From: Puniceicoccales bacterium
GTDB lineage: Bacteria; Verrucomicrobiota; Verrucomicrobiia; Opitutales; LL51
Reading direction: 5' to 3'
Length of the DNA: 64,000 bases
Assembly (NCBI GenBank): GCA_031257405.1
Contig: JAIROS010000002.1
Coordinates: 10,512-74,511, forward strand
Shown here: one piece after another, positions 8,983-63,102 of the stretch
Layout of the letters: each line of letters begins with the position of its first letter
Numbering within the stretch: position 1 is the stretch's first letter
The notes under the pieces: generated by a model
What the model was told of the DNA's origin: nothing
Databases searched by the model: none
The model's input: only the letters and a program-made list of their open reading frames with translations
Program-made: the position numbers and the translations under genes

Positions 8983-9057
8983 CTAAAATTTATAATTTCA
9001 ATTTTTTGCTAAACTACGACTAAACTTCACCAAATCAAGCATTTATTTGAAAAAATA

Positions 9058-18069: not shown

Positions 18070-18076
18070 TCTCCTC

Positions 18077-18775: not shown

Positions 18776-18841
18776 ATTATAAATAGGGCTAGGGCAATTT
18801 TCACCACTGTCAAGCTATTTCTAAATATTTTTTCCATATAT

Positions 18842-19267: not shown

Positions 19268-19271
19268 AACT

Positions 19272-19844: not shown

Positions 19845-19847
19845 AAA

Positions 19848-36212: not shown

Positions 36213-37118
36213 CTATTTTTTAGAAATTTCATCAAAAATTTGCTGCAAAACGTCCCGTGGCGTCGATGCACCGGCCGCGATGCCGATTTTTTTGTAGGAC
36301 GCGAGATCGAGTGCCGCCGCCTGCGCAACGCCTTCTACCCAAAAAACGCGGGAGCCCCATGCCCCAATTTTTTCAAATAAACGCCGCGTATTCGCCGAGT
36401 GAAATCCGCCTACAACGATCGCCGCGTCGCAGTTTTTCAGTGCTTCGAGACCTAATTGCCGCGCCTTTGTCGCCGGACAAATTGTGTCAAAAATTTTAGC
36501 AGGGAAATGTTTTTTTTTACATAAAATGCTTGCCGCTTTCAAAAAATCTATATCCAATGTGGACTGGCAGATTATAACCCAATCGCACGTTTCGCCGGGA
36601 TCAGGATTTTTATTTTTACAAATATTTACATTATCTTTATAATTATAGCGCACGGCATCGATGTATTGCGCCAGTTCCGCGAGATTTCCACAAACGCAAA
36701 TATTCCCAGAATAACCGCATAATCCCTCGATCTCCGCGTGGTCGCGATCCCCCAAAAGAATGATTTTTTTACATTTATTGGCCTCGATCGTCCGCGCAAT
36801 GCGACGCACCAAAGGACAAGTGCAATCCACAATTTTACATCCAAAATTTTCTAAATAAAGGCGGCGCCCCGGCGAAATCCCGTGGGCACGGACGATGATC
36901 GTATCCCCACCGCAAACCACCGAATCCCGCCGCAACAGCCGCATCCCTAACGCCCATAATCGCTCATTCACCGCGCCATTGTGTACCAATTCGCCCTCCA
37001 AAAAAATATGCCCGCACTGCCTATTTTGCGCCACATTTAACACTTTTTTTACGGCAGCCGCGACGCCCCCACAAAACCCGGAAGCGGGAGCCATAATCAC
37101 TTCGCGACCTCCGCTCAT
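36213..37118 (-). CDS. ispH: 4-hydroxy-3-methylbut-2-enyl diphosphate reductase
   Basis: 301-aa ORF (GFCGGV..AV...; VRAHG.SP; three conserved Cys; STLD). Its start overlaps the fabD stop (ATGA). Confidence 0.9.
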   Translation of the reverse strand: MSGGREVIMAPASGFCGGVAAAVKKVLNVAQNRQCGHIFLEGELVHNGAVNERLWALGMRLLRRDSVVCGGDTIIVRAHGISPGRRLYLENFGCKIVDCTCPLVRRIARTIEANKCKKIILLGDRDHAEIEGLCGYSGNICVCGNLAELAQYIDAVRYNYKDNVNICKNKNPDPGETCDWVIICQSTLDIDFLKAASILCKKKHFPAKIFDTICPATKARQLGLEALKNCDAAIVVGGFHSANTRRLFEKIGAWGSRVFWVEGVAQAAALDLASYKKIGIAAGASTPRDVLQQIFDEISKK

Positions 37119-43484: not shown

Positions 43485-45062
43485 CTAAAAACCAAACCAT
43501 CGCCGAAATCGTTCCATAAATCTTCCCTCAATTCTTGGCTGCTCATAGTTTTCATGTTGATATTGCCCCGCTTTTTTTATGAAATCTATTATGTTAGGAG
43601 TAATCCATGGGCCGCTGTATATAGCCAAAGCATCATAACCTTCATTGCCGTTTTTCCTAAAAATAAGACTTCCACTAAACCCAGACCCACAGAGAGGTGA
43701 GGAATAAGAAGACTTCTTGTTCTTAAATTCTTCTAAACATTTTTTACATTCGCTGCTTAATTTTTTTATTTTATCTATACACTCTTTTGCGGTTTTTAAC
43801 GACCATTTTGCTCCATCTGCACATATTTTTGCTTGTTCTTTGTCTCCCCTATCCAAGGCGTCTTTCATTCTTTGATTCCAAACATTCGCAAAACCCATCT
43901 GCTTATCATACCATTGTTCTCCAAGCGAAATCTGCAACAATAAACATTCTAGAAAACGACACAAATGCAAGCCTCCCACACAACCACATCCTCCCACATT
44001 TTGACTAGTACCTTCTCCCATTAAATCTAATCCTCTCAAAGTGATTGCTTTTTTCACGCCACTTCCAAAAAAATTTCTTTTTTCCTCTCCGGAAAAGAAC
44101 GAACCCTGATCTGGACATAATCCTGTCCATCCATAGCCAATAACCACGGGACATTCATCCTCAGGAATTGCTTCTCCCGGAGATTTTTCCAAATTGACAT
44201 GGTAAGGTGGAGTGCCTCCTGCCCTATAATCGACTAAAGAAAATTGATCAAAGGGGAATCCAAAAACGGTTTCCTCTTCGCATTTTATCGGTTTATACAA
44301 TATGAGTAGAACTAAATCGTAACAAACGATTCTCCCCTCATCGCCGGTTTCCTCCTTTTTACCAGGCAAAAAATACATATGGGTAACGGGGATTCTCTCT
44401 GAAATTTTTCCCCATTCTAGTCTAACATTAATTTCGGTGATTGTCAAGTTACCGTTTTCTTTGCCGAACAAAAAACTCCCGTTTTTGGAAAGTCCCTCAT
44501 TTTGTTTAAAATGTCTCATTTCCTGCCCACCGAACGATATGACTTCATCGCCTCCATTTTCAGGCAAAACTAGCTCCTTAATATCATTATTCTCAAATTC
44601 TGGCAATACGGCGTGCGCACAGGTTATAACGCACCTTCCCTCTAATCCCCGAATATTCAGATTGACTATATTACCTGTAGCGCCACGTGCAGAGAATGAT
44701 CCTGGTTTGACTTGGCCAGTAATTGGATTATATTCCATACTTTCGTTTTCAACGTGAACAATACTCATCGCCTCCCGCCTCAGATCTCCATTCCGAACGC
44801 GCTCAACGTCTTCTAGTTTGAAACAAGCCTCAGGAAAAATATCTTCATCGTGTAAAAATTTCCTAGCTTCCCGCTTTTCTTCTTCGGAAACTGCTCCGGA
44901 AGTATCTTTCAATTTTCTGAAGGCTTCGGCGATTTGTTTCGCTTCCAATTGTGGATCAACGGCTTCCGGCGAAGAATCAGTGGCTACTGCCTTACCGTAA
45001 CCCATACTCAGCAATAAACCTATGCTGTATATCCTTAATTTTATTGTTTTGTTTCTTACCAT
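43485..45062 (-). CDS. Secreted protein with a divergent trypsin-like (S1/PA-clan) His-Asp-Ser arrangement
   Basis: The ORF track gives 43485..45092. The ATG at 45062 gives a signal peptide MVRNKTIKLRIYSIGLLLSMGYGKAVA. Candidate triad contexts are VITCAHAV, CYDLVLLIL and CGSGFSGSLIF. Confidence 0.55.
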   Translation of the reverse strand: MVRNKTIKLRIYSIGLLLSMGYGKAVATDSSPEAVDPQLEAKQIAEAFRKLKDTSGAVSEEEKREARKFLHDEDIFPEACFKLEDVERVRNGDLRREAMSIVHVENESMEYNPITGQVKPGSFSARGATGNIVNLNIRGLEGRCVITCAHAVLPEFENNDIKELVLPENGGDEVISFGGQEMRHFKQNEGLSKNGSFLFGKENGNLTITEINVRLEWGKISERIPVTHMYFLPGKKEETGDEGRIVCYDLVLLILYKPIKCEEETVFGFPFDQFSLVDYRAGGTPPYHVNLEKSPGEAIPEDECPVVIGYGWTGLCPDQGSFFSGEEKRNFFGSGVKKAITLRGLDLMGEGTSQNVGGCGCVGGLHLCRFLECLLLQISLGEQWYDKQMGFANVWNQRMKDALDRGDKEQAKICADGAKWSLKTAKECIDKIKKLSSECKKCLEEFKNKKSSYSSPLCGSGFSGSLIFRKNGNEGYDALAIYSGPWITPNIIDFIKKAGQYQHENYEQPRIEGRFMERFRRWFGF

Positions 45063-45072
45063 AGTTATATTG

Positions 45073-45102
45073 GATATATCAGTCCCATTCAATCAATGTC
45101 AA
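45073..45102 (-). promoter_or_regulatory. Putative promoter of the peptidase-like gene
   Basis: The minus strand reads aaaaaaagcTTGACAttgattgaatgggacTGaTATATCcaatataactATG. It has a perfect -35 and an extended -10. The ATG is about 11 nt after the -10 with no Shine-Dalgarno sequence. Confidence 0.45.
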
Positions 45103-45166: not shown

Positions 45167-46477
45167 ATGACGGTCGCACTGTGCTCGATTTTTTGCGGAC
45201 TCTGCCTGGGATCCCTCCTCTACCGCTCCAGTAAATATAACGCCGAACGAAATGCCCTGGCTACCCAATTGAAAGACGCCCAAAACCGTTGCACCGAAAT
45301 CGCTACCCAAAAAGCCGAACTCCAAGGAAAATTGTCCGCCATCGAAATCCAGTTTTTACAAAAAAATCAGGAATTTAATAAACTTCTTGAACATTTCCAA
45401 CAAATCTCCGCCGAAAAAATCACCCTCGAAACGACCCGCAGCGAAATCCTTCGGCACCGCGAACAATTAAAACTCGAACTCACTGCCCTCTCCCAGGAAA
45501 TTTTAGAGGCCAAAAAACAAAAATTTTCCGAGGAAACCCAAAAGGAAATCGGCCACCTCATCGCCGACCTCCAAAAAGAATTCTCCACCTTCAAAAACGA
45601 AATTTTCTCCCCGGAAACAAAATCGCGCACCGAATTGTCCACCCACCTCAAATCGCTCCTCGATAACGTGCAAAAAATGCACAGCGAAGCCGAAAATCTA
45701 ACAAACGCCCTCCGCAATAACGCTAAAACTCAGGGTGATTGGGGCGAAGTCCAACTGGAAAACCTCCTCGAACAAGCCGGCCTGTCCGAAGAAAATGGCG
45801 ACTATGTGAAGCAGGGTAAGGGCCTCGAATTGAAGACCGATAGCGGTGCCGCAAAACCCGATTTCCTCATAAAACTCCCGCGAAATCAGTGGATTTTGAT
45901 CGACGCGAAGGTCTCGCTGTCCGCCTACGAACGCATGGTCAACGGCACCGACCCCCAAGATCGCGAGCGGTCCCTTCAACAACATATCGCCTCCATCCAA
46001 AAACATATCGACGAAGTCGCCAAATACCACCAAATCAACAATACTATCGATATTTGCCCATTTTTACTGCTGTTCCTGCCCATCGAATCCGCTTACGCCA
46101 GCGCCATTTCTAATCCCGCGGCCCAAAAAAAGGATATCGCCGAGTACGCCCGTCAAAAAAATGTCATCATCGTCTACCCCTCCACGCTATTCCTGACTTT
46201 GCGGCTGATCCAAGCGATTTGGCAGGTGGAAAAACAAAATCTCAACGCCCAGGAAATCGCTGACCGCGGCGGGAAATTGTACGATAAATTTTGCGGATTG
46301 CTTGACGAATTGCGGGAATTGTATAAGTTATTTGGAAAGGTGCACGAGCAGTTCGGCGACAAAATTATCCCCAAAATAAGCGGCCGCGGCGGGTTACTCA
46401 CCCAATGCGATGACCTCCAAAAACTCGGCGCAAAAAATAAAAAATTAATCAAAAAAGAAAATTTACTGGAGCAATAA
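45167..46477 (+). CDS. rmuC: DNA recombination protein RmuC
   Basis: 436-aa ORF with an N-terminal transmembrane helix, a long coiled coil, and a C-terminal RmuC nuclease-like domain (GDWGE.QLE..L...GL....Y..Q......PD....LP......IDAK). Confidence 0.88.
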   Translation: MTVALCSIFCGLCLGSLLYRSSKYNAERNALATQLKDAQNRCTEIATQKAELQGKLSAIEIQFLQKNQEFNKLLEHFQQISAEKITLETTRSEILRHREQLKLELTALSQEILEAKKQKFSEETQKEIGHLIADLQKEFSTFKNEIFSPETKSRTELSTHLKSLLDNVQKMHSEAENLTNALRNNAKTQGDWGEVQLENLLEQAGLSEENGDYVKQGKGLELKTDSGAAKPDFLIKLPRNQWILIDAKVSLSAYERMVNGTDPQDRERSLQQHIASIQKHIDEVAKYHQINNTIDICPFLLLFLPIESAYASAISNPAAQKKDIAEYARQKNVIIVYPSTLFLTLRLIQAIWQVEKQNLNAQEIADRGGKLYDKFCGLLDELRELYKLFGKVHEQFGDKIIPKISGRGGLLTQCDDLQKLGAKNKKLIKKENLLEQ

Positions 46478-46481
46478 AATT

Positions 46482-47753
46482 ATGTTGGACTTAAAATTCA
46501 TCCGCGAACATAGCGACGAAGTGCGAGCCGGAATCGCTAAAAAAAAATTTAGCTGCGACCTCGACGCGTTTATCGCCGCCGATCACGAACGACGCGACCT
46601 CATCACCCATTCGGAATCCCTCCGCGCCCAACAAAATGCCGCTAGCAACGCCGTCAAAATCCTCGATAAAAAGTCGCCCGAATTCCAATCGAAAACCGCC
46701 GAACTGCGGATGCTCTCCGAAAATGTAAAAACGCTCGACGCCCAACTCGCAATAATCGAAGCAAAATGGAAGGCCCTCTACCTCGCCATCCCCAACGTCC
46801 CCCATAAATCCGTGCCCGCCGGTAAAAACGCGGACGATAACCAGACGGTGGCGACTTGGGGCGATATCGAAAAAATTTCCCCCTTCGCTACCCCCCACTA
46901 CGACATTCCATGGTTCGGCCAGCTGATCGATTTCCCGCGGGGCGTGAAAGTAACCGGTGCCGGATTCCCGTTTTACGTCGGCGACGGGGCCCGTGTGGTG
47001 CGCGCGCTGATCACATTTTTTCTGAACGAAGCCAAGGCCAACGGCTACACCGAATGCATGGCGCCCGCCCTGGTCAACGCCGCAAGCGCGACGGCTACCG
47101 GCCAGCTCCCCGATAAAGAGGGACAGATGTATCACGACGCGGCGGACGATTTTTACATGATTCCGACGGCGGAAGTCCCGGTGACCAATTTTTTCCGCGA
47201 CGAAATTTTCGAAGCATCGAAATTGCCCATCTACCGCTGCGGGTACACGCCTTGTTTTCGCCGCGAGGCGGGGAGTTGGGGGAAGGACGTCCGCGGGCTG
47301 AATCGCCTCCACCAATTTGACAAAGTGGAGCTGGTCAAGTGGACCCACCCCGACGAGAGTTTCGAAGAGCTCGAAAAATTGAGGCGCGATGCGGAAAAAT
47401 TGCTCCAAAAACTGCGTCTCCCCTACCGCGTCTTGTCCATTTGCACCGGCGACATCGGTTTCCCGCACAGCAAGCAGTACGATTTGGAGGTTTGGTCTGG
47501 GGGGCAGAAGCGTTGGCTTGAGGTTTCCAGTTGCAGCAATTTTACTGATTTTCAGGCGCGGCGCGCGGGCATTAAGTTCCGTGAAAAATCCGGAAAATCG
47601 GCATTTGTACACACGCTCAACGGATCGGGGCTAGCGGTACCGCGGGTTTTGGCGGCGATTTTGGAAAACAATCTCCAGGCGGACGGAACGGTACTTTTGC
47701 CAGAAATTTTACAAGATTTTGTTGGAACGGAGAAAATAGGGCTTGCGAAATAA
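46482..47753 (+). CDS. serS: Seryl-tRNA synthetase
   Basis: 423-aa ORF (MLDLKFIRE...; class II motifs FRRE.GS.GKD.RGL.R.HQF.KVE and TLNGSGLAV.R). Confidence 0.96.
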   Translation: MLDLKFIREHSDEVRAGIAKKKFSCDLDAFIAADHERRDLITHSESLRAQQNAASNAVKILDKKSPEFQSKTAELRMLSENVKTLDAQLAIIEAKWKALYLAIPNVPHKSVPAGKNADDNQTVATWGDIEKISPFATPHYDIPWFGQLIDFPRGVKVTGAGFPFYVGDGARVVRALITFFLNEAKANGYTECMAPALVNAASATATGQLPDKEGQMYHDAADDFYMIPTAEVPVTNFFRDEIFEASKLPIYRCGYTPCFRREAGSWGKDVRGLNRLHQFDKVELVKWTHPDESFEELEKLRRDAEKLLQKLRLPYRVLSICTGDIGFPHSKQYDLEVWSGGQKRWLEVSSCSNFTDFQARRAGIKFREKSGKSAFVHTLNGSGLAVPRVLAAILENNLQADGTVLLPEILQDFVGTEKIGLAK

Positions 47754-47879
47754 TTTTCTCGCGCACGGTGACTTTAGATTTTTCGCCCCTGATTATTCGC
47801 GCGGCAGAGGCGGGGAATATGTGTATTTTAGCGGTATTTTGTCGCTTGAAAAATTTTTCGTTAGCCCCATAGTTGTTTT

Positions 47880-49225
47880 GTGGATCTCAGAGGTCACCTC
47901 CAGCAAACCCAGACTCAGCGGCTATCGCCGGCGATGCTGCGGGCGCTGAATATTTTACAATTACCCGCCGTCGAACTTTACCAACTCGCCGCCGAAGAAA
48001 TCCGACGCAATCCGCTCCTCGACATCACGGCTGCCGACGCTTTTTCCCCCATTTTTTCCGCAAGCGGGAACGCGGAAGATATTGATATAGGCGCGCGCGC
48101 GATATAGTTGACGATGAAAAAAGCAAGCAAAATTTTTTAGAAAATATTGCGGCGGAACGTTCTCCGGAGGATTATCTTTTAGCGCAGGTGCCCGATCTGG
48201 ACGAAACCACGAAATCGGCATTGGCAACGCTGATTAGCAACCTCGATGGGCGCGGATTTTTGTCGGAGGATGTGGCGCAACAATTCGGAATCTCTCCCGC
48301 AAACGGCGAAGAGAATCGCGATTCGGCTTCCAAAAATTTGCCGGAAAATGTTTTTCAAAAAGCTTACAAAATTTTACGATCGCTTTCGCCGAAGGGCATC
48401 GGCGCTCGAGATTTACAGGACTGTTTTTTGCTGCAAATCCCACAAAATACGCCGCTTTACGAGCTCATCGCGCAGCATTTCGACGACCTGGAATATCGCC
48501 GTTTTGTTAAATTACGACGAAAACTTGGTAAAACGCAAACCGAATTACGTGCGCTGCTGGCGCCCCTAAAGTCACTCAACTTCGCCCCGCTCAAGACGAT
48601 TACGCCGCACACCAATCCGACAATAATTCCGGAAATTATTTTCAAAAAAACCGATCGCCGGTGGAGTTTCGAGCTTCGTGGCCCACCGGAAATGAGGATG
48701 AGCGACCTTTACAAAACGCTGCTTATCCGCCCGCTGAAGGGCGAAGAGCGTGATTTTTTTACAAAAAATAAACAAAATGTTCAATTTTAGATTCAATCGC
48801 TGCATCAACGTCGGGAAACTTTACAAAAAATTGCCCAATATATTTTGAAATTTCAGAGTGATTTTTTGGAAAATGGCCACGCTTCACTGCGCCCGCATCA
48901 TCAAAAACAAGCCGCCGCGCTCCTGCACGTACACCCCTCCACACTCTCGAGGGCGATCCAAAATAAATATGCTCAGACGCCGCACGGAACGGTTCCGCTG
49001 CAATTTTTCTTCTCCCACGGCAATCACGGCTCACTCATCGCACAAAACGCCCTCCGCGAAAACATCAAAAATATGATCAAAAACGAAAACAAAATTTCGC
49101 CACTCAGCGACGGAAAAATCGCACAAATCCTCCAAAATGAAGACATTTGGATCGCACGACGCACCATAACTAAATACCGCACACTCCTCAGTATCCCTTC
49201 AGCAAATGTCCGGCGATATATGTAA
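47880..49225 (+). pseudogene. rpoN: RNA polymerase sigma-54 factor, disrupted by one frameshift and one in-frame TAG
   Basis: Three collinear pieces are present. Region I is QRLSPAMLRALNILQLPAVELYQLAAEEIRRNPLL (frame 0, stop at 48105..48107). The core-binding part is GIGARDLQDCFLLQI (frame 2, open from 48086, TAG at 48788..48790). The C-terminal part holds the HTH and RpoN box, HPSTLSRAIQNKY..TP.G...LQFFFS and ARRTITKYR (same frame, to 49225). Confidence 0.85.
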
Positions 49226-49254
49226 AATTTTTCACAAAAAAAATAATTTTATAA

Positions 49255-49335
49255 TTTTAAATTAAAATCCAAACGCGTTACTCGCCCCTCCCTATGTTTT
49301 CTAGCGTGGCACAAATTTTTTCCATTGTCAACTAT
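49255..49335 (-). repeat. Solitary copy of the element repeated at 28160..28545
   Basis: By-eye alignment: aattaaaatccaaacgcgttactcgcccctccc...ccattgtcaac here against aattagaattccaaacgcggcattctccccaccc...ccaattgtcaag in the array, roughly two-thirds identical. It includes a minus-strand AAAAATAG-TTGACA. Confidence 0.6.
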
Positions 49336-49418
49336 TTTTTATATTTAAAAATTTTTTCGACATTTGCGCGGCATTTCCAATATGAATTTCAGGTTTCGGA
49401 TTTTTTGAATCACCGACA

Positions 49419-50750
49419 ATGGAAACGACTATTTTCCGACAGCTCCCCGACGCATTTTTTCACGGCGACTTCCCGGTCGAAATCAGCGGTTTTTGGAACG
49501 ACACGCGGACGCTTCGGCCTGGCGGCTGCTTCCTTGCGCTCACCGCGCGGCGCGACGGCCACGAATTCCTCGCCGATGCACAACGAAATGGCGCCCATTG
49601 CGCAATCGTCAGCCGCATCAACAAAAATTTAACCCTGCCCCAATTCCGCGTCGCCGATGTCCTCGAAGCCGCCAAAACTATTGTAAAAATTTATCGAAAA
49701 AATTATATAATCATTTCCGTGTCCGGTAGCTACGGAAAAACATCCACGAAAGATATGTTGCGGCTACTGTTTGGCGAAAATGCCTACGCGACGGAAGAAA
49801 ATCTCAATAACGAACTCGGCGTCATACTCTCGTTAAGCCGCATAAAATATGAACAATTCGGCATTATCGAAGGCGGAATCGATCACCCTGGCGAAATGGA
49901 TCGCCTCATCGACCTCGTCCGCCCCAATATCTCCGTCACGACCGGAATCGCCTCCGTACACCTCTCAAATTTTGAAAATTTTAATCAATTAATTTGTGAG
50001 AAAGTAAAAATTTTACAAGACGCCCTCGCGCGCAACGGCCACGGCATTGTCCCCGAACATTGCCTGACCCACGCCGCTTTCCGACAATTCGCCGACCGCT
50101 GCACCATCGTCGGCCGCAGCAATCGCCTCGCCCAATACCCGCATTTCACCCAATTCCGACTCGCCAAAAATAATACGATCATTTTGCGCGGGAAATATTT
50201 CCAAAACACCGCTTTTTTACTGCCAGAAATGAGTCTCGGGCAGGCGGAAAACTTCGCCAAAGCAGCCACCGTAGCGAAACTCGCGGGCATCGACGACACC
50301 GTCATTCAAAAAAAAATTTTACAATGGAAGCCGGGGAAAATGCGCGGCGAAACGATTTTTTTCAGGGGCCACGCCGTTTACCTGGACGCCTACAACGCAA
50401 ATCCGGTCGCGATGGACGACGCCCTGCGCCACTTCGACAAAAAATATTCCGGTGAAAAAACTTATATCCTCGGCGGCATGCGGGAACTCGGCCCATTCTC
50501 CGAAAATAGCCACGAAATATTAGCAAAATATTTTTTTAGAAAAAAAAATGCGACGATTTTCGCCATCGGAAAAGAAATGAATACCTTCTTCGAACGGCTG
50601 CGGCGAGCGAATCCCGCAGTAAAAATTTTCTACTTCGAAGACACCGAAACAGCTAAAAAACCTTTATTAAAAGCCATTCGCGGGACAATTTTCGCCAAAG
50701 GTAGCCACGCGTACCACCTGGAAAAAATATTCAGCGACGGCCCCGCTTAA
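49419..50750 (+). CDS. murF: UDP-N-acetylmuramoyl-tripeptide--D-alanyl-D-alanine ligase
   Basis: 443-aa ORF with the Mur-ligase P-loop (ISVSGSYGKTSTKDML), NLNNELGV, and DAYNANP. Confidence 0.9.
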   Translation: METTIFRQLPDAFFHGDFPVEISGFWNDTRTLRPGGCFLALTARRDGHEFLADAQRNGAHCAIVSRINKNLTLPQFRVADVLEAAKTIVKIYRKNYIIISVSGSYGKTSTKDMLRLLFGENAYATEENLNNELGVILSLSRIKYEQFGIIEGGIDHPGEMDRLIDLVRPNISVTTGIASVHLSNFENFNQLICEKVKILQDALARNGHGIVPEHCLTHAAFRQFADRCTIVGRSNRLAQYPHFTQFRLAKNNTIILRGKYFQNTAFLLPEMSLGQAENFAKAATVAKLAGIDDTVIQKKILQWKPGKMRGETIFFRGHAVYLDAYNANPVAMDDALRHFDKKYSGEKTYILGGMRELGPFSENSHEILAKYFFRKKNATIFAIGKEMNTFFERLRRANPAVKIFYFEDTETAKKPLLKAIRGTIFAKGSHAYHLEKIFSDGPA

Positions 50751-50795
50751 GATTTATTTTCCAAATTGCAACATAAAAAAAATATAATAAATATA

Positions 50796-50824
50796 TTGAC
50801 ACTTTTCTAAAAATCTACACCCTC
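50796..50824 (+). promoter_or_regulatory. Putative promoter of the autotransporter gene (-35 TTGACA)
   Basis: Reads aataaatataTTGACActtttctaaaaatctacaccc. The -10 is unclear. A Shine-Dalgarno AAAGGAAAAAGG precedes the ATG at 50869. Confidence 0.3.
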
Positions 50825-50868
50825 AGGCGAGAAGGTATATTAGATACTTTTAATAAAGGAAAAAGGTT

Positions 50869-53800
50869 ATGAAGGAAAAAAATAGGAAGATGGGGCCGCT
50901 AGCGAATCGCTACGGCTTATTAACGGTATTAGGTTTAGGTTGTTCATTTTTGGTGGGGGCTGCTCACGGGACGGAGACCGCCGTGACGGAAAACACGCGC
51001 TACGTAGCGGGAAAAAATGCGGGCAATGTTTTCAAGTTTGGTACGGATGGCGCTCTACCGGCGGCGGCGACGGACGCGTCGATTTTTACTAACGGCAACG
51101 AAGATCGGCTCACACTCAAAGGTGCGGCCAATGCTGGGGCGTTAGCGCAGGTGATATTTGACACTGCTGGTGAAACTGCTGTTGGTGGTACTTTTCAGCC
51201 GGAGGTGAAGAACGCCGATTTAGCGGCGGTAAAGACTTCGCTCCTCGATAATGGTGATTTGAATGAGATTTTCGCGCATAATGGCGCCCCCGCTGATCAT
51301 GCTTTAGCGACGCTCCTCAACAGAATCGCCGTCATCCAAGCCGTTAATGTACTGGATGCAGCCTTTGCTGCACTTCCAGCAGATGTCAACCCCGTAGCAA
51401 ACCAACTTAATGGCGTTGTCGGTGCCACTAACGCGAATGGTGGAGGTGTTACGAATACTGAATTTAAAGCAGCGATTGCACTAATCAAAACCAATGCAAG
51501 TGCCTTTGGCGATGTAACAGCGCTTACAAACAAACTCACTGCCATTGATGGGGCTGGTGGTACAGCTCTCTTCGGTACCACACCATTAAATGGCACTCAG
51601 GCCAAGGCCGAGGCCATTGCGAAGGATATAAATGCCATTCTTGCAGCCACTAACGCTAATCATGGCTTAAAGGAGGAATTTGACGCGATCACAAATGCCG
51701 CCACTACTCAGGCAACGGCCGCAACAACTTTCGCCGGAAATCTAAACACCGGCATGACCACCGGCGCCGGCGAATGGAATACCGCAAACTCCGGAAAAGG
51801 AGAATTGATCGATGGCGGTGTTAATGCTGCTACTACTGCTGTCGTCAGCGGTAATCTCGGTGCGGCCGGAATTTTTGAAGCAATACAAACACAACATGAC
51901 CAATTTATAACATGGTTAAATATTCCCGCCAACGTCGCGGAGGCTGACCTGATAGCCGCCGTACAAGCAGTCTTTGCCCCTGGTGGTGGTGCGCCGGCAG
52001 ACAGAGCAACCGCATTAGCAGTAGTAACATCAAACCTTAACACTGCACTAAATGCCGCCAAAACTGCCGCATACGGCGCCTTGAAAGGCCTATTCGACGT
52101 CGCCCCAGCCCCAGCAGCCGGTGCCGCCGCTACCCCGCGTACCTTCACTTACCAAATTAGCCAAAGTGATTTGAAGAATGACCTGAATTTAACTAGTAGT
52201 ACCACGAGTAAAAATTTCGCCGTCATTGATCCAGCGACTATGAACGCAAATGAAACCGTGATGTTCATCTTTGATACTACAACACGCGAAGCAAAATCTG
52301 TCAACGTCGGTAATATTTTTTACAAAAAACTCGATAAAGATCTCAATTTGCACCTGGTGCATACCTTGATGGATCAGAATGGGACCATAGAGACCGTCGG
52401 ATTTAATGAAATTAAAGATCCCTTCGATCCAAACGCAACCCTAAACCACTTGACCCTGCAGCTTTCGACCGCTGCTCAAGAGCGTTCCGGCAATAATCCT
52501 GATTTTATTTTCGATAAAGAAATATTTGTCAAAAAATTGATCTTGGGTATTCCGAACACTCAGGAGATAGATATCGCAATCAAGAGTGATGTGCAGGATA
52601 AATTGATCAATAATTATAAAATCGGCCCCGGAGGTGTGGATGTAAAATTTGAGGAAAATTTAACTGTCGCGAATGATATTGAAGTTTTACAAAATAGTGA
52701 ACTAAAATTCGTGGATACTAAAACGCTATACCTCGGTGGGAACCTCAAGCTCCGAGATGGCAGCGCCACACTCCATTTAGGTACGGGCTCCGCCAGAGAA
52801 ACGGTCAATATCGCACCTCTCGCAGCACAAGCAGGAAATATTGTATTCGAGAATAGAGATGTGCTCATGCTCACCAGTAATGTTACGCTTAATGTTACAA
52901 ATCCGGGCAGAGGCACCGACTACTACTTCAAAGGCATTACTGGCGCTCCTAATGCTGCATTTACGGTTGCAGCTCCTGATGATCATGCGATAACCCTAAA
53001 ACTTGATGCTATTGATGCTGGCGCTATGCATGTCAATGGAGTTGCCGTTGGTGGCGCTAATGATATCGCCATGATAACCGTTGGGGATGGAGGTACCTTA
53101 GAACTCGAAAATATCACCATAAAAACAACAGATGACGAAAAAAATCCTATTATCGCGAAATTCGGAAGCAATGGTACGTTGGAACTCGACAATGTTACTC
53201 TCGGTGGGACTGGAATAGACATAACGGCACTCAAAGCCGGTGAGAATTTTACAATTGGCCTCAACGGTGCAACAAACTTATACGGTAATATCAATGCTGG
53301 GAAAGGTGCAACGTTGGCCGTAGATCTAGGTAATCCGGGCACTTTAAAATGGCCCGAAGGAAGTTTAGCACTCCCCGCCAATGAAAAACTCAAGATTGAA
53401 ATTGGTGATAGTAGCGATGCGATTCTTGAAAAAGGTTTGTCTGCATTAAAAACAGCTGTAGCTAACAGCAAGTTAAACATCATTGATCTATCTGGTAATG
53501 CGGCTAATGCGGCGGCTATAGGGGCTCTCGTTTCCCTCGACCTCGTTTCGTCACCCCTACTCAAAGGCGCAGCGCTAAAATTCGATGCCACAACCGGCCT
53601 TTTTACATTGGAAGTCCCAGCCAACGCAGTCCCGAGTAATCTCGCCGAATACCTCGCAAACAGCGGTAGTTTCGATCGCGCCTACATCTCCGACGACCTA
53701 TTCAGCATAGTGGATAAGGCGGTCCAAAGCGGTGCCAAAACAAACATCGAAGCCTTATTGGTCCAGGGAATATTTAATCCAAATTATTCCAATGCACAAA

Positions 53801-54861
53801 AATCTAAGATCCTATCCGCTCTATCCAAAACTACGACCGAAGAGAAAAATCGCGCCACATTAACATTGATCGATACCGCACGCGAAACGATCTACGGAAA
53901 AATGGGACAAGATCCCGACCCCGGTAAACATTATAGCGTTTGGGTATCTGGTTTCGGCGACGTCGCGCGGAATGGTTCTTCCGGTAGCTATAAGATGAAA
54001 TGCAACACCTACGGCTTCACTCTGGGCGTCGATACCCACATCAATGATGACTTCCTTTTGGGTGCCGTGTTCGGCTACGGTAAAGCGAAAGCCAAAAACA
54101 GAGGCGATATGGCGCTTAGCAGCGACGGCCGGTTCGATCTCAAGTCCTATTTCGGCGGCATTTACGGTATGTGGGATGAACTTGTTCCGGACCTTTCCCT
54201 CAAATTCTCCGTCCTCGCCGGCCACGGGAAATACGAAGAAAAACAATATTTTGACTTTGGAATAGCAAAAGGTACTATTCTCGATAGCAGCCACGACGGC
54301 AACTGGTTGAGCGGCAATGTGGATTTCACCTACAAGCACTGGAGTGTTATGGGCTTCAACGTCGGCCCTTGGGTATCCCTTTCGGCGACAACGATCCACC
54401 AAAAAAGCGGCGATGTGGGTTCCGCAACCACTACTAAAACGGATCGTATGGTCAATAGCACCGCTACACACTACAAGCGCGAGGTAGCTGCTGCCGATCG
54501 GCGCGCCATTGAAGCCATATTTGGTGTCGCGATGGATTACGAATTCGCAGCGGGTATTTTCGAGCTCGCTCTTGGTTACAAGCACGACTGGCGCAAGTTA
54601 AAAGGCGGTAAAGTATCCATTTGGGAGGCGTTCAGCGACGGCAATTACAAAGGATTGACGGCCGCATCGGGTAGCAATCACATTTCCGAGTTTTTCAAAT
54701 TCGGCGCATCGAACATGGAAACGGGCAAGCATGCGTTTGTTGGGCGAGCTGCTTGGAACATGCAATTTGGAAATTTTGGATTGACTCTCGGTGGTCACGG
54801 CCAAGCGGGGAGCCATTTTAAGGACATTTCCGGTTTCATAACCGCTTCTTATTCATTTTAA
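50869..54861 (+). CDS. Autotransporter outer-membrane protein (type Va) with a long Ala/Thr/Asn-rich passenger
   Basis: 1330-aa ORF with a signal peptide (LLTVLGLGCSFLVGAAHG). The last 280 aa or so show the alternating beta-barrel pattern (HYSVWVSGFGD...YGFTLGVD...GAVFGYG) and end in the aromatic SYSF. Confidence 0.88.
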   Translation: MKEKNRKMGPLANRYGLLTVLGLGCSFLVGAAHGTETAVTENTRYVAGKNAGNVFKFGTDGALPAAATDASIFTNGNEDRLTLKGAANAGALAQVIFDTAGETAVGGTFQPEVKNADLAAVKTSLLDNGDLNEIFAHNGAPADHALATLLNRIAVIQAVNVLDAAFAALPADVNPVANQLNGVVGATNANGGGVTNTEFKAAIALIKTNASAFGDVTALTNKLTAIDGAGGTALFGTTPLNGTQAKAEAIAKDINAILAATNANHGLKEEFDAITNAATTQATAATTFAGNLNTGMTTGAGEWNTANSGKGELIDGGVNAATTAVVSGNLGAAGIFEAIQTQHDQFITWLNIPANVAEADLIAAVQAVFAPGGGAPADRATALAVVTSNLNTALNAAKTAAYGALKGLFDVAPAPAAGAAATPRTFTYQISQSDLKNDLNLTSSTTSKNFAVIDPATMNANETVMFIFDTTTREAKSVNVGNIFYKKLDKDLNLHLVHTLMDQNGTIETVGFNEIKDPFDPNATLNHLTLQLSTAAQERSGNNPDFIFDKEIFVKKLILGIPNTQEIDIAIKSDVQDKLINNYKIGPGGVDVKFEENLTVANDIEVLQNSELKFVDTKTLYLGGNLKLRDGSATLHLGTGSARETVNIAPLAAQAGNIVFENRDVLMLTSNVTLNVTNPGRGTDYYFKGITGAPNAAFTVAAPDDHAITLKLDAIDAGAMHVNGVAVGGANDIAMITVGDGGTLELENITIKTTDDEKNPIIAKFGSNGTLELDNVTLGGTGIDITALKAGENFTIGLNGATNLYGNINAGKGATLAVDLGNPGTLKWPEGSLALPANEKLKIEIGDSSDAILEKGLSALKTAVANSKLNIIDLSGNAANAAAIGALVSLDLVSSPLLKGAALKFDATTGLFTLEVPANAVPSNLAEYLANSGSFDRAYISDDLFSIVDKAVQSGAKTNIEALLVQGIFNPNYSNAQKSKILSALSKTTTEEKNRATLTLIDTARETIYGKMGQDPDPGKHYSVWVSGFGDVARNGSSGSYKMKCNTYGFTLGVDTHINDDFLLGAVFGYGKAKAKNRGDMALSSDGRFDLKSYFGGIYGMWDELVPDLSLKFSVLAGHGKYEEKQYFDFGIAKGTILDSSHDGNWLSGNVDFTYKHWSVMGFNVGPWVSLSATTIHQKSGDVGSATTTKTDRMVNSTATHYKREVAAADRRAIEAIFGVAMDYEFAAGIFELALGYKHDWRKLKGGKVSIWEAFSDGNYKGLTAASGSNHISEFFKFGASNMETGKHAFVGRAAWNMQFGNFGLTLGGHGQAGSHFKDISGFITASYSF

Positions 54862-54879
54862 CGCTTTCGGTTGCACAGG

Positions 54880-54907
54880 GGGGCGGACAATTCCGCTCCT
54901 TTTTTTT
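54880..54907 (+). terminator. Rho-independent terminator after the autotransporter gene
   Basis: GGGGCGGA-caat-TCCGCTCC (8-bp stem including one G-U pair) followed by T8, 19 nt after the stop. Confidence 0.8.
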
Positions 54908-54944
54908 ATCTGGTTTTTTGGCATTATTTTGTTTCGATTGCTGC

Positions 54945-55325
54945 ATGGGCGGCATTATTTCGGTTGGCCACGACATGGTCGAAATTGAACGCGTGGAGCG
55001 TGCTATCAAGCGGTATGGCGAAAAATTTTTACAAAAAATATACACGCCGGCTGAGTTGCGCTATGCATTTGGGAGGGGGGATGCCGTGTCGTCTTTAGCG
55101 GCTCGATTTGCGGCCAAGGAGGCCATTTCGAAGGCATTTTTATGTGGCATCGGGCGGCAATTTCGCTGGCAAAGTGCGTCCATTATTCACCGAGATAGTG
55201 GGGCTCCGGAGGTTATTCTCGATGTTTTAGGGGCGGCGCGTTTGGAGAAACTAAGCGGCCGGCGGGTCATTATTTCTCTGACGCATACCCGCTCCATAGC
55301 TTCGGCGGTCGCCCTCGTTACCTGA
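54945..55325 (+). CDS. acpS: Holo-[acyl-carrier-protein] synthase
   Basis: The ORF track gives 54918..55325. The ATG at 54945 gives MGGIISVGHDMVEIERV..., the AcpS N-terminus. Also present: AARFAAKEA..KA and SLTH. Confidence 0.9.
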   Translation: MGGIISVGHDMVEIERVERAIKRYGEKFLQKIYTPAELRYAFGRGDAVSSLAARFAAKEAISKAFLCGIGRQFRWQSASIIHRDSGAPEVILDVLGAARLEKLSGRRVIISLTHTRSIASAVALVT

Positions 55326-55346
55326 TTAAATAACTGAGTACCGAAA

Positions 55347-55416
55347 ATTATTTTCAATATTCTAGGGGCACGGAGGAACTAAGCGGCTGGCGGGTTATTA
55401 TTTCTCTGACGCACAT
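55347..55416 (+). repeat. Partial duplicate of the acpS 3' end
   Basis: 55347..55416 (aattattttcaatattctaggggcacggaggaactaagcggctggcgggttattatttctctgacgca) matches 55211..55287 inside acpS with one short deletion. Confidence 0.8.
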
Positions 55417-55451
55417 TGCCCATAAAGTAAAAAAAATTAAAATTTAAACAC

Positions 55452-56450
55452 TTACAAAACAACAATATCTTCATCGACCGGCTCAGCGGCATGTAACGGA
55501 TGCGCGAACCCGTGCATTTCCTCCAGCGACTCCCCGCCGCCTGCCGCAATGTCGCCAACCTCTACCGGAATCTCAAGCGGCCTAAAACCCTTCGCACCCA
55601 CAAAAAGTACGCCCCTCCCCGACTCTCCACTCCCCCGAATATTCACGCTTACCGTGCGCTCACCAGGTAAAAAACGGACCTCCGGCATAATAATACTGTC
55701 GGGGATGTCGGTCGTGACGTCGAGCTCAATGCCGTCCGCCGGCGCCGCCTGGTCAATCATAAATACTAACCGCTGACTCTCCCCATTACCCAAACGAATA
55801 AAATCACTGCTGCATTGCAAATTCGAACGGTCAATGAAAAATGTCCCCGCAAAAAATTCCCTGCGGTTCGATAGCAAATAAACCTCGTACTCCCGATCGC
55901 ACTCCATGGGCGGTACCCTAAAGGCAATGGCGCCCGCCGATAGCCAATCGGACGGAATCGTCCGCCCCCCCATGCGCACCTTGTCTGCCCGCCCTAAACC
56001 GCAGCCAACGATATTCACCGGCGCCCCCACAGGCCCGCGATTCGCATCAAGCGCAAAAATATATTTGCTGGTAACCGCCGTACGGTAGAGCTCGGATTTC
56101 GCAATTCTTTCACGAATGGTGCCGTGGCGATTGATCTCGTAAATCAGCTCGAAATAATAGGGGATGGTGCCCAGGTCGTAAAATGGGTAGTCGTAGACAA
56201 AAATATTATTGCCATCGGGATGTTTTTGCATCTCATGTTTTTGGCCGTTGATAACGACGTAGGGTTTAATACTTTTTTGTAAAATGTCGCCGTCGGAATT
56301 GCGTACGCCCATGGTAATGGTGTACATGTGGGACTGATTTTGCGGCATAACATTGGGCGTCATATTGCAAATATCTTCCTCCATACACCCCCCTAAACCT
56401 ATCGCCGCCGCGAGCAAAAAAATTTTACTTGGCCCAGACAATAATTTCAT
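55452..56450 (-). CDS. Lipoprotein of unknown function with an IPT/TIG-like segment
   Basis: The ORF track gives 55452..56606. The ATG at 56450 gives MKLLSGPSKIFLLAAAIGLGGC (lipobox LGGC). The middle part, VNIVGCGLGRADKVRMGGRTIP....AIAFRVPP, resembles an IPT domain. Confidence 0.6.
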   Translation of the reverse strand: MKLLSGPSKIFLLAAAIGLGGCMEEDICNMTPNVMPQNQSHMYTITMGVRNSDGDILQKSIKPYVVINGQKHEMQKHPDGNNIFVYDYPFYDLGTIPYYFELIYEINRHGTIRERIAKSELYRTAVTSKYIFALDANRGPVGAPVNIVGCGLGRADKVRMGGRTIPSDWLSAGAIAFRVPPMECDREYEVYLLSNRREFFAGTFFIDRSNLQCSSDFIRLGNGESQRLVFMIDQAAPADGIELDVTTDIPDSIIMPEVRFLPGERTVSVNIRGSGESGRGVLFVGAKGFRPLEIPVEVGDIAAGGGESLEEMHGFAHPLHAAEPVDEDIVVL

Positions 56451-56474
56451 AATGGGCGAGGTAAGCACAAATTT

Positions 56475-57596
56475 ATGCATTTGCAAGAACAAGTTTACGT
56501 GCCGTTGGGATTGTACGTCCACGTCCCGTTTTGCGGCGTTCCGTGCAGCTACTGCGCCTTTTACAAGGAGCGTTTGACGCCGGCCGCCCTCGAACGCTAT
56601 ACCCACTGCCTGTGTGACGAAATCCGGTCTATCGACGACGATCGCGCCTTTGATACGATTTATTTTGGCGGTGGGAATCCGGGGGTTTTAGGTCCCGAGC
56701 AGATCGGGCGAATCGCGGCCAATATCCACCAAAAACTCAGGCAATCCCCCCGCGAATGGACCGTCGAAAGTTCACCCAATATGGTCAGCGAAAGTAAGTT
56801 ACGGGCCTGGCAATCCGCCGGCGTCAATCGCCTATCGCTGGGCGTCCAAAGTTTCGACGAACGGACATTGCGCGCGCTCGGTAGGAAACAAAATCCCCGC
56901 CAAACCTTCCACGCCTACGAACTTATCCGCCAAATGGGTTACCGGAATGTGGGGCTTGATCTGATTTTTTCCGCGCCGGAACAGACCGCTACGCAACTCA
57001 TCGCAGACCTGACTACCGCCATTTCCCTCGCCCCAGAACACATTTCGACCTATTGCCTGACCTACGAAGAGGGGACGCCGCTGAGTCAGAAAGTGGGTAA
57101 TGGGGCCGAGGAGGGCCGTGATAGCGATTTTTACGAAATGGTGTGCGATTTTTTGGGCAATCGGGGATACGAACAGTACGAGATTTCCAATTTTTGCCAA
57201 CGCGGCTACGCCTCCATCCACAACAAAAATACGTGGCGCATGGCGGATTGGATCGGCCTTGGACCGTCGGCGAGCAGCCAATATCGCGGCAGACGTTACT
57301 CCCAAATGGCTTCCGTGGGACGTTGGGCGGCGGGCATCGAAAATCGCCATCCCGAGTGGCGCGACATTGTAAATTTGGATGAAAAAATTTTAGCAATCGA
57401 TAAAATTATTTTCGGCCTACGGATGAACGAGGGCGTCGATATTTCCCGTAACCCGTGCGGCGACCGGCTGGAATTTTTTTTCCGAGACCTGCAAAGTGAA
57501 GCGCTACTGATCCGCGAAGGGCCGATTATCCGCCTAACCCGCCAAGGCCGCCTCCTCTGCGACGCTATCACCCAAGAAATTTTCAATTTTTTTTAA
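56475..57596 (+). CDS. hemW: Radical-SAM heme chaperone HemW (HemN-like, oxygen-independent coproporphyrinogen oxidase family)
   Basis: 373-aa ORF with the radical-SAM motif (YVHVPFCGVPCSYCAF) and GGGNPG. Its length fits HemW rather than HemN. Confidence 0.85.
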   Translation: MHLQEQVYVPLGLYVHVPFCGVPCSYCAFYKERLTPAALERYTHCLCDEIRSIDDDRAFDTIYFGGGNPGVLGPEQIGRIAANIHQKLRQSPREWTVESSPNMVSESKLRAWQSAGVNRLSLGVQSFDERTLRALGRKQNPRQTFHAYELIRQMGYRNVGLDLIFSAPEQTATQLIADLTTAISLAPEHISTYCLTYEEGTPLSQKVGNGAEEGRDSDFYEMVCDFLGNRGYEQYEISNFCQRGYASIHNKNTWRMADWIGLGPSASSQYRGRRYSQMASVGRWAAGIENRHPEWRDIVNLDEKILAIDKIIFGLRMNEGVDISRNPCGDRLEFFFRDLQSEALLIREGPIIRLTRQGRLLCDAITQEIFNFF

Positions 57597-57797
57597 AAAC
57601 TTGCCATTATTATTATATTTTTTATGAATATTTTCTTTCCGAGACCTGCAAAGTGAAGCGCTACTGGTCCGCGAAGGGCCGATTATCCGCCTAACCCGCC
57701 AAGGCCGCCTCCTCTGCAACGCCATCACCCAAGAAATTTTTAATATTTTTTAAAAAAACTTGCCATTGTTTTTATATTTTTTATAATAATTAAACCT
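57478..57797 (+). repeat. 157-bp tandem duplication covering the hemW 3' end, the intergenic promoter, and the first codons of the next gene
   Basis: The anchor gagacctgcaaagtgaagcgctact occurs at 57484 and 57641. The two copies differ at only a few positions. Each copy contains cTTGCCAtt...tatattttttat(g)aata. Confidence 0.9.
57760..57787 (+). promoter_or_regulatory. Putative promoter of the 504-aa orphan gene (TTGCCA-N16-TATAAT)
   Basis: A perfect -10 TATAAT lies at 57782..57787. The ATG at 57798 is 10 nt downstream and no Shine-Dalgarno sequence is present. Confidence 0.5.
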
Positions 57798-59312
57798 ATG
57801 AATAATATCTTAAAAAGTCAAATGGCGTGCCTATGCATAATAGGGAGTAGCAGCGTATTATTGGGCGAAGGTGAACCTTATTTTGCCCAGGAAAGAAAGC
57901 AACTTCCCAAAAACACAAACGCGGTGGGCGGGCAACCCCCAACCATGCAGAAACCCATCCAACGAAACGTCAATACTAACCAAGGTCCACACCTCAAAAC
58001 CCCACCTAATCCGGTAAACAAAAATTTGGGAAAAACAGCCGCCACACATGATAGAAAGCCCGTAGACGACGGCGTACGTTATTTTGACCAGGAAAGAAAG
58101 CAATTGTGGGAAGCTTTAAAGGCGATACGCGATAAAGTCGTAAACACGAAACAACCTACCCAACAAACCATTAATATCGGCCCAAGAACATACAAGGTCA
58201 TATGTACCATAGGCGGAGATAGGGTAACAATACTTGTTATGCTCCTTGAAAATCCAGACACCCCAGTGCAGCGGTTGATCAAAATCATCGAAGGCCAAAA
58301 TTCAACCCAAATTCAATTGGTGAGCAAAAATACGTCACAGACCATTAATGGCCCCAAAAACATATGGAGTAGGTGGGAAAATCGTAAAATTATCGACCAA
58401 GTGCTCGATAATTTTTACAAAGACACACGCAAAGACTTTGAACACTGCTTCGCAATAATGGGGAATCCAAGCGCTCCTTCCAAGCAAAAACAGAACGCAA
58501 TGAGGAAATTGAACTTGTTTTACCTATCACCTAATCTTTCAAAGTCAGATAAAGAAAGGATCGAAAAATTTGTTCGGGATCTCAATTGGAAAGTAAATAT
58601 TTTTGCACATGCCACATATTTTAAAATGAATCCAAAAGAAATCGCAAAATTGGAAAAAAATCTTTATCCGAATAAGTGCCCTGCTATAAGAAATACATTC
58701 CAATTCGATCCACAATCTATGACACGCTTCCCTGTAGCCGAAGGACTCACATATTTTAAATATAAAACACTCAACGATGAACCAGATGTTCTGCTTTTGA
58801 CGAAAGAATTTTTCTCAAAAGAGCGACAGAAACAAGTAACGGATTCCAACGGTCTGGTATTAAGTTTAAACGAACTAAAGGGAATGTGCGATGCCGAGCT
58901 TTTTAAATTACAGAAAAACAAAGATCTATCGCCTCAGGAAAAAGAAAAACGGCTGACAGCACTGTCAAAAGAAGTGCAGGAATATTTGCAGTATCTAGAG
59001 GGTTCCGGAGTTGAAAAATTAGTTGATATATATAATAAATTCAATACGGAACCAGTTTTTACCAAACGACCATTCTTTGGTAAGTTCTTTGGTAAGAATA
59101 CAATAGACTCAGCATCAATAGCAGCTGCACAAGCGGGATCAAGGATTAAATTATTTACAACAGATTTTCAAAAATTAGAAACAAAAATAAAAATTGAATT
59201 GGAAAAACTTCGGGCAAACACCTCGGGTTCAGGCGTAGATCGCAGCGGCGGGGCTATTTCGCCCGCTACCCCCCAAGCGACGCAACAGTTGTACACCATC
59301 CGGAGCGTTTAA
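57798..59312 (+). CDS. Orphan secreted protein (504 aa), unknown function
   Basis: The N-terminal leader MNNILKSQMACLCIIGSSSVLLGEG resembles the ankyrin leaders. The motif YF(A/D)QERKQL occurs twice. The protein is Lys/Asn/Gln-rich and I recognise no domain. Confidence 0.7.
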   Translation: MNNILKSQMACLCIIGSSSVLLGEGEPYFAQERKQLPKNTNAVGGQPPTMQKPIQRNVNTNQGPHLKTPPNPVNKNLGKTAATHDRKPVDDGVRYFDQERKQLWEALKAIRDKVVNTKQPTQQTINIGPRTYKVICTIGGDRVTILVMLLENPDTPVQRLIKIIEGQNSTQIQLVSKNTSQTINGPKNIWSRWENRKIIDQVLDNFYKDTRKDFEHCFAIMGNPSAPSKQKQNAMRKLNLFYLSPNLSKSDKERIEKFVRDLNWKVNIFAHATYFKMNPKEIAKLEKNLYPNKCPAIRNTFQFDPQSMTRFPVAEGLTYFKYKTLNDEPDVLLLTKEFFSKERQKQVTDSNGLVLSLNELKGMCDAELFKLQKNKDLSPQEKEKRLTALSKEVQEYLQYLEGSGVEKLVDIYNKFNTEPVFTKRPFFGKFFGKNTIDSASIAAAQAGSRIKLFTTDFQKLETKIKIELEKLRANTSGSGVDRSGGAISPATPQATQQLYTIRSV

Positions 59313-62060: not shown

Positions 62061-62425
62061 ATCGCGACGCCTCCCGCGCTCCAACAGAACATATTTTCAT
62101 TGCATTCGCAGTGCAATTTATGTAAAAAAAATATTTTTTGATGCCGGAAAAAGGGCTTTGATATGGCTAAAAAATTTGGTTAAAAATTCGATAATACCGC
62201 CCCGGGCCATGTAAATCGCGACGCCTTCCGCGCTCCAATAGCACACATTTTCATTGCATTTACGGTGCAATTTATGTAAAAAAAATATTTTTTAATGCCG
62301 GAAAAAGGGCCTCGATATAGTTAAAAAAATTGGTTAAAAATTCGATAATACCGCCCCGGGCCGTGTAAATCGCGACGCCTCCCGCGCTCCAATAGCACAC
62401 ATTTTCATTGCATTCGCCGCATGGT
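62045..62425 (+). repeat. Tandem repeat, 154-bp period, about 2.4 copies, between cca and the exonuclease gene
   Basis: The anchor gtaaatcgcgacgcc recurs at 62057, 62211 and 62365. Copy 1 begins in the last codons of cca and copy 3 runs into the exonuclease ATG. A hairpin ATTGCA-N7-TGCAAT is present in copies 1 and 2 (62099..62117). Confidence 0.9.
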
Positions 62426-62427
62426 TT

Positions 62428-63102
62428 ATGCAGAATAGCCGCAATATGCTGCCGCCCATACATGTGATCGATTTTGAGGGGAATCGCGCCCACGGAATTA
62501 TGGAATTCGGACTGGTGACGCTCGAAAACGGCCGCATGAAAAATATTTTTTACCGCCAATGCTCCCCAAAAATTTCGCCCCAAAATGCCCCTTTCCGCGA
62601 GCACTCCCGCTTCCACGGCAACGCGACACAGCACTCTTTCGCCGAATATCTTCCTCTGTTCCGAGCCAGACGCCGGAGTGGTTTTTTTTGTGCGCACAAC
62701 GCGTCGGTCGAAGATCGCCTCCTGCGGCAGTATACTTTTCTTCCGCCGATGAGCCAAAATATGGCTTACCATGCGCTTTCGGACAGGTGCCGCGCCTCCG
62801 ATAAAACCCCAACTCCGACCCAAATAACTCCGATCACTACAGCGCCGTCGTGGGGGCCGTGGATCGATACTTACCGGATTTACAGAAAATTTTATTCGGC
62901 GGCGAAGCATTATACCCTGGCGGAATTAATCCGGCATTTTCGGCTCGAAACGGAATTACAAACGCTTGTCACTCAGCACGTGAATAACAAAAAATTGACA
63001 TTCCACCGGGCCGCCGATGACGCCCTCGCTACGGCATTACTACTGCAAAATTTTATCAATCTTTTCCACTTGAAAGACATCCGATTTTTACTCAATTGTT
63101 AA
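62428..63102 (+). CDS. DEDD-family 3'-5' exonuclease (DnaQ/epsilon-like)
   Basis: 224-aa ORF with Exo I (HVIDFEGN) and Exo III (HRAADDALATALLL) motifs. An alternative ATG lies at 62446. Confidence 0.75.
   Translation: MQNSRNMLPPIHVIDFEGNRAHGIMEFGLVTLENGRMKNIFYRQCSPKISPQNAPFREHSRFHGNATQHSFAEYLPLFRARRRSGFFCAHNASVEDRLLRQYTFLPPMSQNMAYHALSDRCRASDKTPTPTQITPITTAPSWGPWIDTYRIYRKFYSAAKHYTLAELIRHFRLETELQTLVTQHVNNKKLTFHRAADDALATALLLQNFINLFHLKDIRFLLNC

Follow-up and report, generated by a model that had tools for sequence, protein, structure and literature searches.

Sigma-54 (RpoN) requires its region III for the recognition of -24/-12 promoters. The solved sigma-54 structures from K. pneumoniae and E. 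coli (PDB 7qxi, 7qv9, 5ui8, and 5nwt) have the same three-part architecture as an rpoN copy found in a 64-kb stretch of DNA (hereafter, the window) from an uncultured member of the Puniceicoccales (Verrucomicrobiota), and a phmmer search against these structures matches the window copy over query residues 94–446 (E 1e-43). Unlike in the K. pneumoniae and E. coli proteins, the frame in the window is broken twice and the DNA-binding region is not joinable to the core-binding domain. The intact orthologues from other Puniceicoccales resemble the window copy in synteny, in the region of the GTG start, and in a promoter-like block, but differ from it in possessing a sense codon (TGG or TTA) where the window has a stop, a (CG)n region that remains in frame, and a single open frame. 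A verrucomicrobial cluster of protist endosymbionts has been described that includes members from termite guts, and a symbiont from this cluster, 'Ca. Organicella extenuata', which has a tiny genome, has no sigma factor reported other than RpoD (PMC8204192). The window is likewise verrucomicrobial and may belong to that cluster, and sigma-54 is not among the components reported for 'Ca. Organicella extenuata' (PMC8204192); whereas the gene is absent from that tiny genome, the rpoN of the window is nearly full length and freshly broken, with the remainder of the sequence undecayed. The best explanation for the locus, held with a probability of roughly 0.88, is a young rpoN pseudogene disabled by two lineage-specific mutations. 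As such, the break adds one more case, an ordinary young pseudogene, to a phenomenon already well known, and it has no bearing on long-standing open questions.

The repaired translation of the locus contains all three domains of the sigma-54 family as identified by Pfam, the activator-interacting domain (PF00309; 47880–48104; E 7.8e-11, 42.1 bits against a cut-off of 23.8), the core-binding domain (PF04963; 48098–48787; E 2.4e-31), and the DNA-binding domain (PF04552; 48791–49222; E 3e-45), in agreement with an earlier reading of the DNA without database searches (the sequence-only reading), which had named the gene as rpoN. What is absent is a single uninterrupted frame joining the three, with the N-terminal activator-interacting domain in a different frame from that of the core-binding and DNA-binding domains. 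A tblastn search with an intact orthologue correspondingly recovers the window gene in two frames, and the 1665-nt rpoN region is the sole long stretch of the window without a long ORF. The locus is a pseudogene of the sigma-54 family and not a functional member, and is filed as such because of a frameshift at about position 48101 and an in-frame TAG at 48788–48790 (Table 1). The elements that the sequence-only reading had described as preserved around the TAG were all located, including the peptides FFTKNKQNVQF (48755–48787) and IQSLHQRRETL (48791–48823) on its upstream and downstream sides, respectively, the helix-turn-helix HPSTLSRAIQNKY (48932–48970), and the RpoN box ARRTITKYR (49154–49180).

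Table 1. Features of the disrupted rpoN locus, in window coordinates.
Feature	Position	Strand	Basis or defining elements
Sigma-70-like promoter match, TTGAAA-16 nt-CATAGT (pattern match only, putative function)	47846-47873	+	Consensus scan
Whole rpoN (sigma-54) pseudogene	47880-49225	+	GTG start at 47880, natural TAA at 49223-49225, two lesions
Segment 1 (frame A), region I, activator-interacting domain, running into a premature TAG at 48105-48107	47880-48107	+	PF00309, translation
Lesion 1, net loss of 4 nt at the 3' end of the GGCGCGCGCGCG tract, frameshift	48090-48101	+	Alignments, sequence
Segment 2 (frame B), region II remnant and core-binding domain	48095-48787	+	PF04963, translation
Lesion 2, in-frame TAG from TGG (Trp), G-to-A at 48789	48788-48790	+	Orthologue alignment, parsimony
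Segment 3 (frame B), region III DNA-binding domain with helix-turn-helix, RpoN box, and natural stop	48791-49225	+	PF04552, sigma-54 structure alignment

The 3' end of the promoter-like match lies 7 nt upstream of the GTG start, and the promoter blocks TTGAAAAATT and CCCCATAG are largely kept in the closer relatives (alignment columns 104–133). The conservation of this block so near to the GTG suggests that rpoN in the clade may be transcribed with a very short leader or with none.

The sequence-only reading had claimed two lesions in the gene, and the upstream lesion proves to be a net 4-nt deletion that causes a frameshift near position 48100. Between the conserved blocks ATAG and ATATAG, the closest relative (L006) has ACGCGCGCGCGCGAG where the window has GCGCGCGCGCG, such that a tract of 15 nt in L006 and in a second close relative, L002, is 11 nt in the window (48091–48101). 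It is the frameshift caused by this deletion, at the end of the (CG)n, that gives rise to the premature TAG of segment 1, and the bases taken out are non-repeat bases (CGAG), not a clean slip of a repeat unit.

For the downstream lesion, the bases at 48785–48793 (TTT TAG ATT) and the shared flanking frame confirm the in-frame stop reported from the letters of the DNA. The TAG is in frame with a 200-aa ORF upstream (48188–48790) and with the open frame downstream (48791–49225), and is directly abutted by the core-binding domain on its 5' side and by the DNA-binding domain on its 3' side. In the alignment with solved structures, the stop column corresponds to the Leu of the WLIKSL motif in chain 7qxi_M, which we take to be native residue 329 (by our own count, minus a 20-residue N-terminal tag), and the motif opens region III. 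Of 120 homologues, 118 have a hydrophobic residue in this column (L, 76; F, 25; W, 12; M, 4; T, 2; V, 1), and the placement of the stop at a conserved hydrophobic position of the W(L/F)IKSL segment was thus correct. The codon had been described as one substitution away from TTG, TAY, or TGG, and the comparison with orthologues that had been proposed alongside narrows the ancestor to TGG while placing a sense codon at the site in the relatives, the closest of them with an intact gene. In DNA alignments, the orthologous codon is TGG in L006, L002, L003, and L007 and TTA in L001, and the ancestral codon is assigned as TGG because four relatives, including the closest, read TGG. Parsimony places the change from TGG to TAG among those specific to the window, and on this reconstruction the lesion is a single G-to-A transition at 48789 that converts Trp to amber.

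Taken in sequence, the deletion at the end of the (CG)n would shift the frame after region I and end translation at 48105–48107, and the transition would place a stop within the first residue block of region III. With standard decoding, the locus would yield at most a 75-residue region I peptide and no full-length sigma-54, and even a frame-corrected product would be without the whole DNA-binding module (helix-turn-helix and RpoN box). Since the product would stop before region III, which is needed for -24/-12 promoters, this copy of rpoN is predicted to be non-functional, and sigma-54-dependent transcription would be lost unless there is another rpoN copy elsewhere in the genome.

Relatives of the window were collected with a scan of one genome per species (L002, L001, and L003, all labelled as Puniceicoccales bacterium MAGs), followed by a protein search (L006, L007, L020, L021, L022, and L024). 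Amino acid identity of RpoN to the window is 85% for L006/P0001, 79% for L002, 71% for L007/P0002, 67% for L001/P0003, and 63% for L003. The gene order serS-rpoN-murF-autotransporter is common to the window and its relatives, with rpoN situated between serS and murF as in eight relatives. Based on tblastn, rpoN is a single uninterrupted frame in six relatives (L001, L006, L007, L020, L021, and L022) and is unbroken up to the contig end in L003, and among the loci compared only the window and L002 have a split gene. None of the six intact relatives has the disabling lesions of the window, nor does L003 over the part that its contig covers. A more distant syntenic orthologue, from a tightly packed locus, is also called as an intact gene, which indicates that the loss of rpoN is not a general feature of the clade. 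A candidate for a second copy in the same genome (P0018; 44% identity, on a 757-kb contig) was rejected, as it is a syntenic orthologue from another sample.

The rpoN of L002 (Gx481_bin202) is also disrupted, by the loss of 1 nt in a T run within the DNA-binding domain (L002 positions 5661–5676) that cuts the called protein to 403 aa; this break, known from a single assembly, is a second and independent one in the same shallow subclade (dS ~0.35–0.5). The lesion differs from those of the window, and L002 keeps both the TGG and the in-frame tract. Several minor features were observed in the other relatives. The RpoN box of L006 reads AQRTVAKYR in place of the usual ARRTVAKYR (alignment columns ~1430–1441), where Gln replaces an Arg important for -24 recognition, and the L006 allele may be hypomorphic. 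In L022, the first 41 rpoN codons occur a second time (9748–9870) upstream of the real gene, and L007 has a 54-aa fragment of the SerRS N-terminus (8448–8612) upstream of serS.

Substitution patterns were explored with pairwise Nei-Gojobori estimates of dN/dS, which for rpoN are 0.19 between the window and L006, 0.26 between the window and L002, 0.23 between L006 and L002, and 0.10–0.18 among the distant intact genomes. The shallow values (0.19–0.27) are far below 1. The neighboring serS also has higher values at shallow (0.08–0.10) than at deep (0.04–0.07) divergence, and at both depths the rpoN values are about 2 times those of serS; relaxed selection specific to rpoN across the subclade was therefore rejected, serS having the same rise. 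With L002 as the outgroup, lineage-specific nonsynonymous to synonymous changes (N:S) number 25:31 in the window and 34:48 in its intact sister L006, compared to a neutral expectation of about 3.3:1. The L002 branch has an N:S of 52:38 compared to 28:35 for the window, which suggests that the loss of rpoN in L002 is older or more advanced. Only two replacements specific to the window fall at well-conserved columns, A300V, three residues before the stop (Ala in 108 of 120 homologues), and G421D (Gly in 92 of 120). Neither elevated dN/dS nor an excess of lineage-specific replacements was seen in the window rpoN, and the lack of a long neutral phase in either measure argues that inactivation was very recent, with the gene probably under purifying selection for nearly the whole branch before it was broken. 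The sequence-only reading had likewise proposed recent pseudogenisation, a proposal that gains from the intact gene in the closest relative, the lack of a nonsynonymous excess, and the strongly recognisable downstream domain.

These rates alone cannot separate a pseudogene from a functional gene that carries two artefacts, and the lack of excess nonsynonymous change is also what would be expected if the real rpoN were intact and the lesions were errors of sequencing, assembly, or consensus, or a minority variant captured in the consensus. The context of lesion 1, a GC-dinucleotide tract, is one prone to both slippage and sequencing trouble. Against an artefact, an exact-sequence look-up of the adjacent MurF led to a contig in the Logan assembly of run SRR14710907 that is 100% identical to window positions 47399–53750 (6352 nt, 0 mismatches, 0 gaps) and carries both lesions, with TAG at the stop site and a tract of 11 nt. 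For both, this rules out an error of the assembler or of polishing, and because the independent assembly is identical, doubt at the level of the reads is largely removed, though the Logan contig may rest on the same reads as the window assembly and could then share with it a minority allele or a library-level problem. Exact look-ups of the window SerRS and the 200-aa rpoN fragment in the assembly index returned no match, and a scan of metagenome contigs with the repaired RpoN returned only distant relatives (26–47% identity) and no strain-level copies. Further, lesion 2 is a substitution and not an indel, and none of the other large ORFs of the window is visibly broken despite many homopolymer runs and some very long frames. 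Among these approximately 50 uninterrupted ORFs are two of 1285 and 1381 aa situated where rpoB and rpoC are expected, an autotransporter of 1330 aa, and those of the ribosomal-protein clusters, which shows the lesions to be concentrated in one 1.35-kb gene instead of scattered as errors would be. With about 57 kb of coding sequence in the window, it would be improbable for two errors to fall within one gene of 1.35 kb, and the pair is a better fit to lapsed selection on rpoN than to random error. Overall, an artefact is considered very unlikely. Elsewhere in the window, the overlap of ORFs 4244–5071 and 4864–5532 was considered as a candidate frameshift and rejected, the two being rplD and rplC with over-extended ORF starts.

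It is also conceivable, though highly improbable, that rpoN is attenuated and not dead, with slippage in the (CG)5 and a leaky UAG-A allowing a trickle of full-length sigma-54 that is put to biological use, or with a free core-binding fragment as the product, competing for RNA polymerase. A milder and likelier version of this reading is one in which sigma-54 is being lost convergently in the subclade, a process still under way to which the independent breaks of the window and L002 would belong. A fully functional rpoN, maintained by read-through at the UAG-A together with slippage in the (CG)n during translation or transcription, or by separate translation of a core-binding and a DNA-binding fragment, is more doubtful still. 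In E. coli, UAG followed by A terminates translation comparatively weakly, the promoter-like element upstream of the gene is unchanged relative to the relatives, and the loss of one further CG unit (net -6 nt) would be predicted to bring lesion 1 back into frame. However, programmed recoding sites are normally conserved, and every relative with an intact gene has a sense codon at the stop site and an in-frame tract; none of the relatives shares either lesion, a pattern that speaks against programmed read-through or frameshifting, and programmed stop-codon recoding was rejected on the same distribution of sense codons. Two candidate restarts, GTG at 48188 and TTG at 48845, lack a correctly spaced Shine-Dalgarno sequence, a start at the former would truncate the core-binding domain, and we know of no described split sigma-54.

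TAG is a normal stop in the window. The 50 window ORFs of at least 120 aa that were taken as genes end in TAA (20), TGA (15), and TAG (15), with TAG closing rpsC, rplB, fusA, tsf, rpsB, and ispH (36213–37118), among others, and on the use of TAG in these core ribosomal genes a genome-wide reassignment of TAG was rejected. An Rfam search of the window found tRNAs only, five ordinary tRNAs that include tRNA-Trp with the anticodon CCA and among which there is no suppressor with a CUA anticodon. The sequence-only reading had considered recoding unlikely from the example of ispH, and the remaining ORFs and the tRNA-Trp point in the same direction.

A phase-variable (contingency) rpoN, switched through the (CG)n tract and hit only later and incidentally by the TAG, has in its favor a dinucleotide repeat of 5–6 units with a length and interruptions that vary among relatives, but is considered highly improbable, as the change from the ancestor was a 4-nt deletion that included non-repeat bases and not the gain or loss of a unit, six relatives are in frame, five units are short for efficient slippage, and the downstream TAG leaves any ON phase non-functional.

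For a young rpoN pseudogene, the preferred reading, the practical consequence is that the locus should be annotated as one rpoN pseudogene instead of two or three small ORFs, and that, barring a second copy, sigma-54-dependent transcription should be scored as absent from the organism. The locus also provides a small dated data point, an rpoN caught almost at the moment of inactivation, with a sister genome broken at a different site and seven other relatives that show no break, and full genomes from the subclade could reveal which sigma-54-dependent functions go first.

The surrounding sequence gives a limited view of the regulon and the lifestyle of the organism. Sites resembling TGGCAC-N5-TTGCW with two or fewer mismatches number 22 in the 64-kb window compared to 26.5 expected, a count that says little for a housekeeping region, and exact GGCAC-N5-TTGC had no match in the related Puniceicoccales loci, the only match occurring in the unrelated L004. 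The six-frame translations of the window and nine related housekeeping loci contain no GAFTGA or activator Walker-A motifs, which is uninformative in loci of this kind. The loss of the sigma-54 regulon together with a reductive lifestyle is plausible, and a link to a host-associated lifestyle has circumstantial support from ankyrin-repeat genes and the compact housekeeping layout. Four tandem ankyrin-repeat genes (275, 260, 284, and 480 aa) are located on the minus strand at 21885–26781, in a patch with a G+C content of ~0.43 as opposed to ~0.50 elsewhere, and ankyrin-repeat proteins are typical of bacteria living in or on eukaryotic cells. The fast-evolving autotransporters are a further feature that fits a host-associated bacterium, and the naming scheme of the MAGs presumably reflects a termite-gut origin for the relatives. 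Relative to their neighbors, two proteins are fast-evolving and may be surface proteins that interact with a host, one of 535 aa that matches no Pfam family (43485–45092, minus strand; 49% amino acid identity to L002, dN/dS 0.61) and the 1330-aa autotransporter (50869–54861, plus strand; 66% identity to L002, dN/dS 0.39).

Several other features of the window were observed in passing. GC skew, calculated per 2-kb window, is -0.29 to -0.40 over the ribosomal-protein and rpoBC region (1–20000), where genes are on the minus strand, and only about -0.03 to -0.15 where genes are on the plus strand (46000–58000), which suggests large replication-strand and coding-strand components to the strand asymmetry. 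The change from TGG to TAG, a G-to-A change on the G-poor strand, follows the direction of this bias. A stretch of ~1.4 kb (57756–59183; G+C 0.43, AT skew +0.21) is missing from the otherwise collinear L002 and may be a lineage-specific insertion; the product of its ORF (57798–59312, plus strand), of 504 aa, matches no Pfam family and has an apparent N-terminal hydrophobic, signal-like start. Finally, two sets of repeats, unrelated to each other, occur near the end of the window, three 154-nt tandem direct repeats (62025–62486; 100, 84, and 65% identity) just after a CCA-adding-enzyme-like gene, and two direct repeat copies of ~109 nt with a spacing of 166 nt (63726–64000), upstream of a pilin-like gene (63207–63653) with an N_methyl motif.
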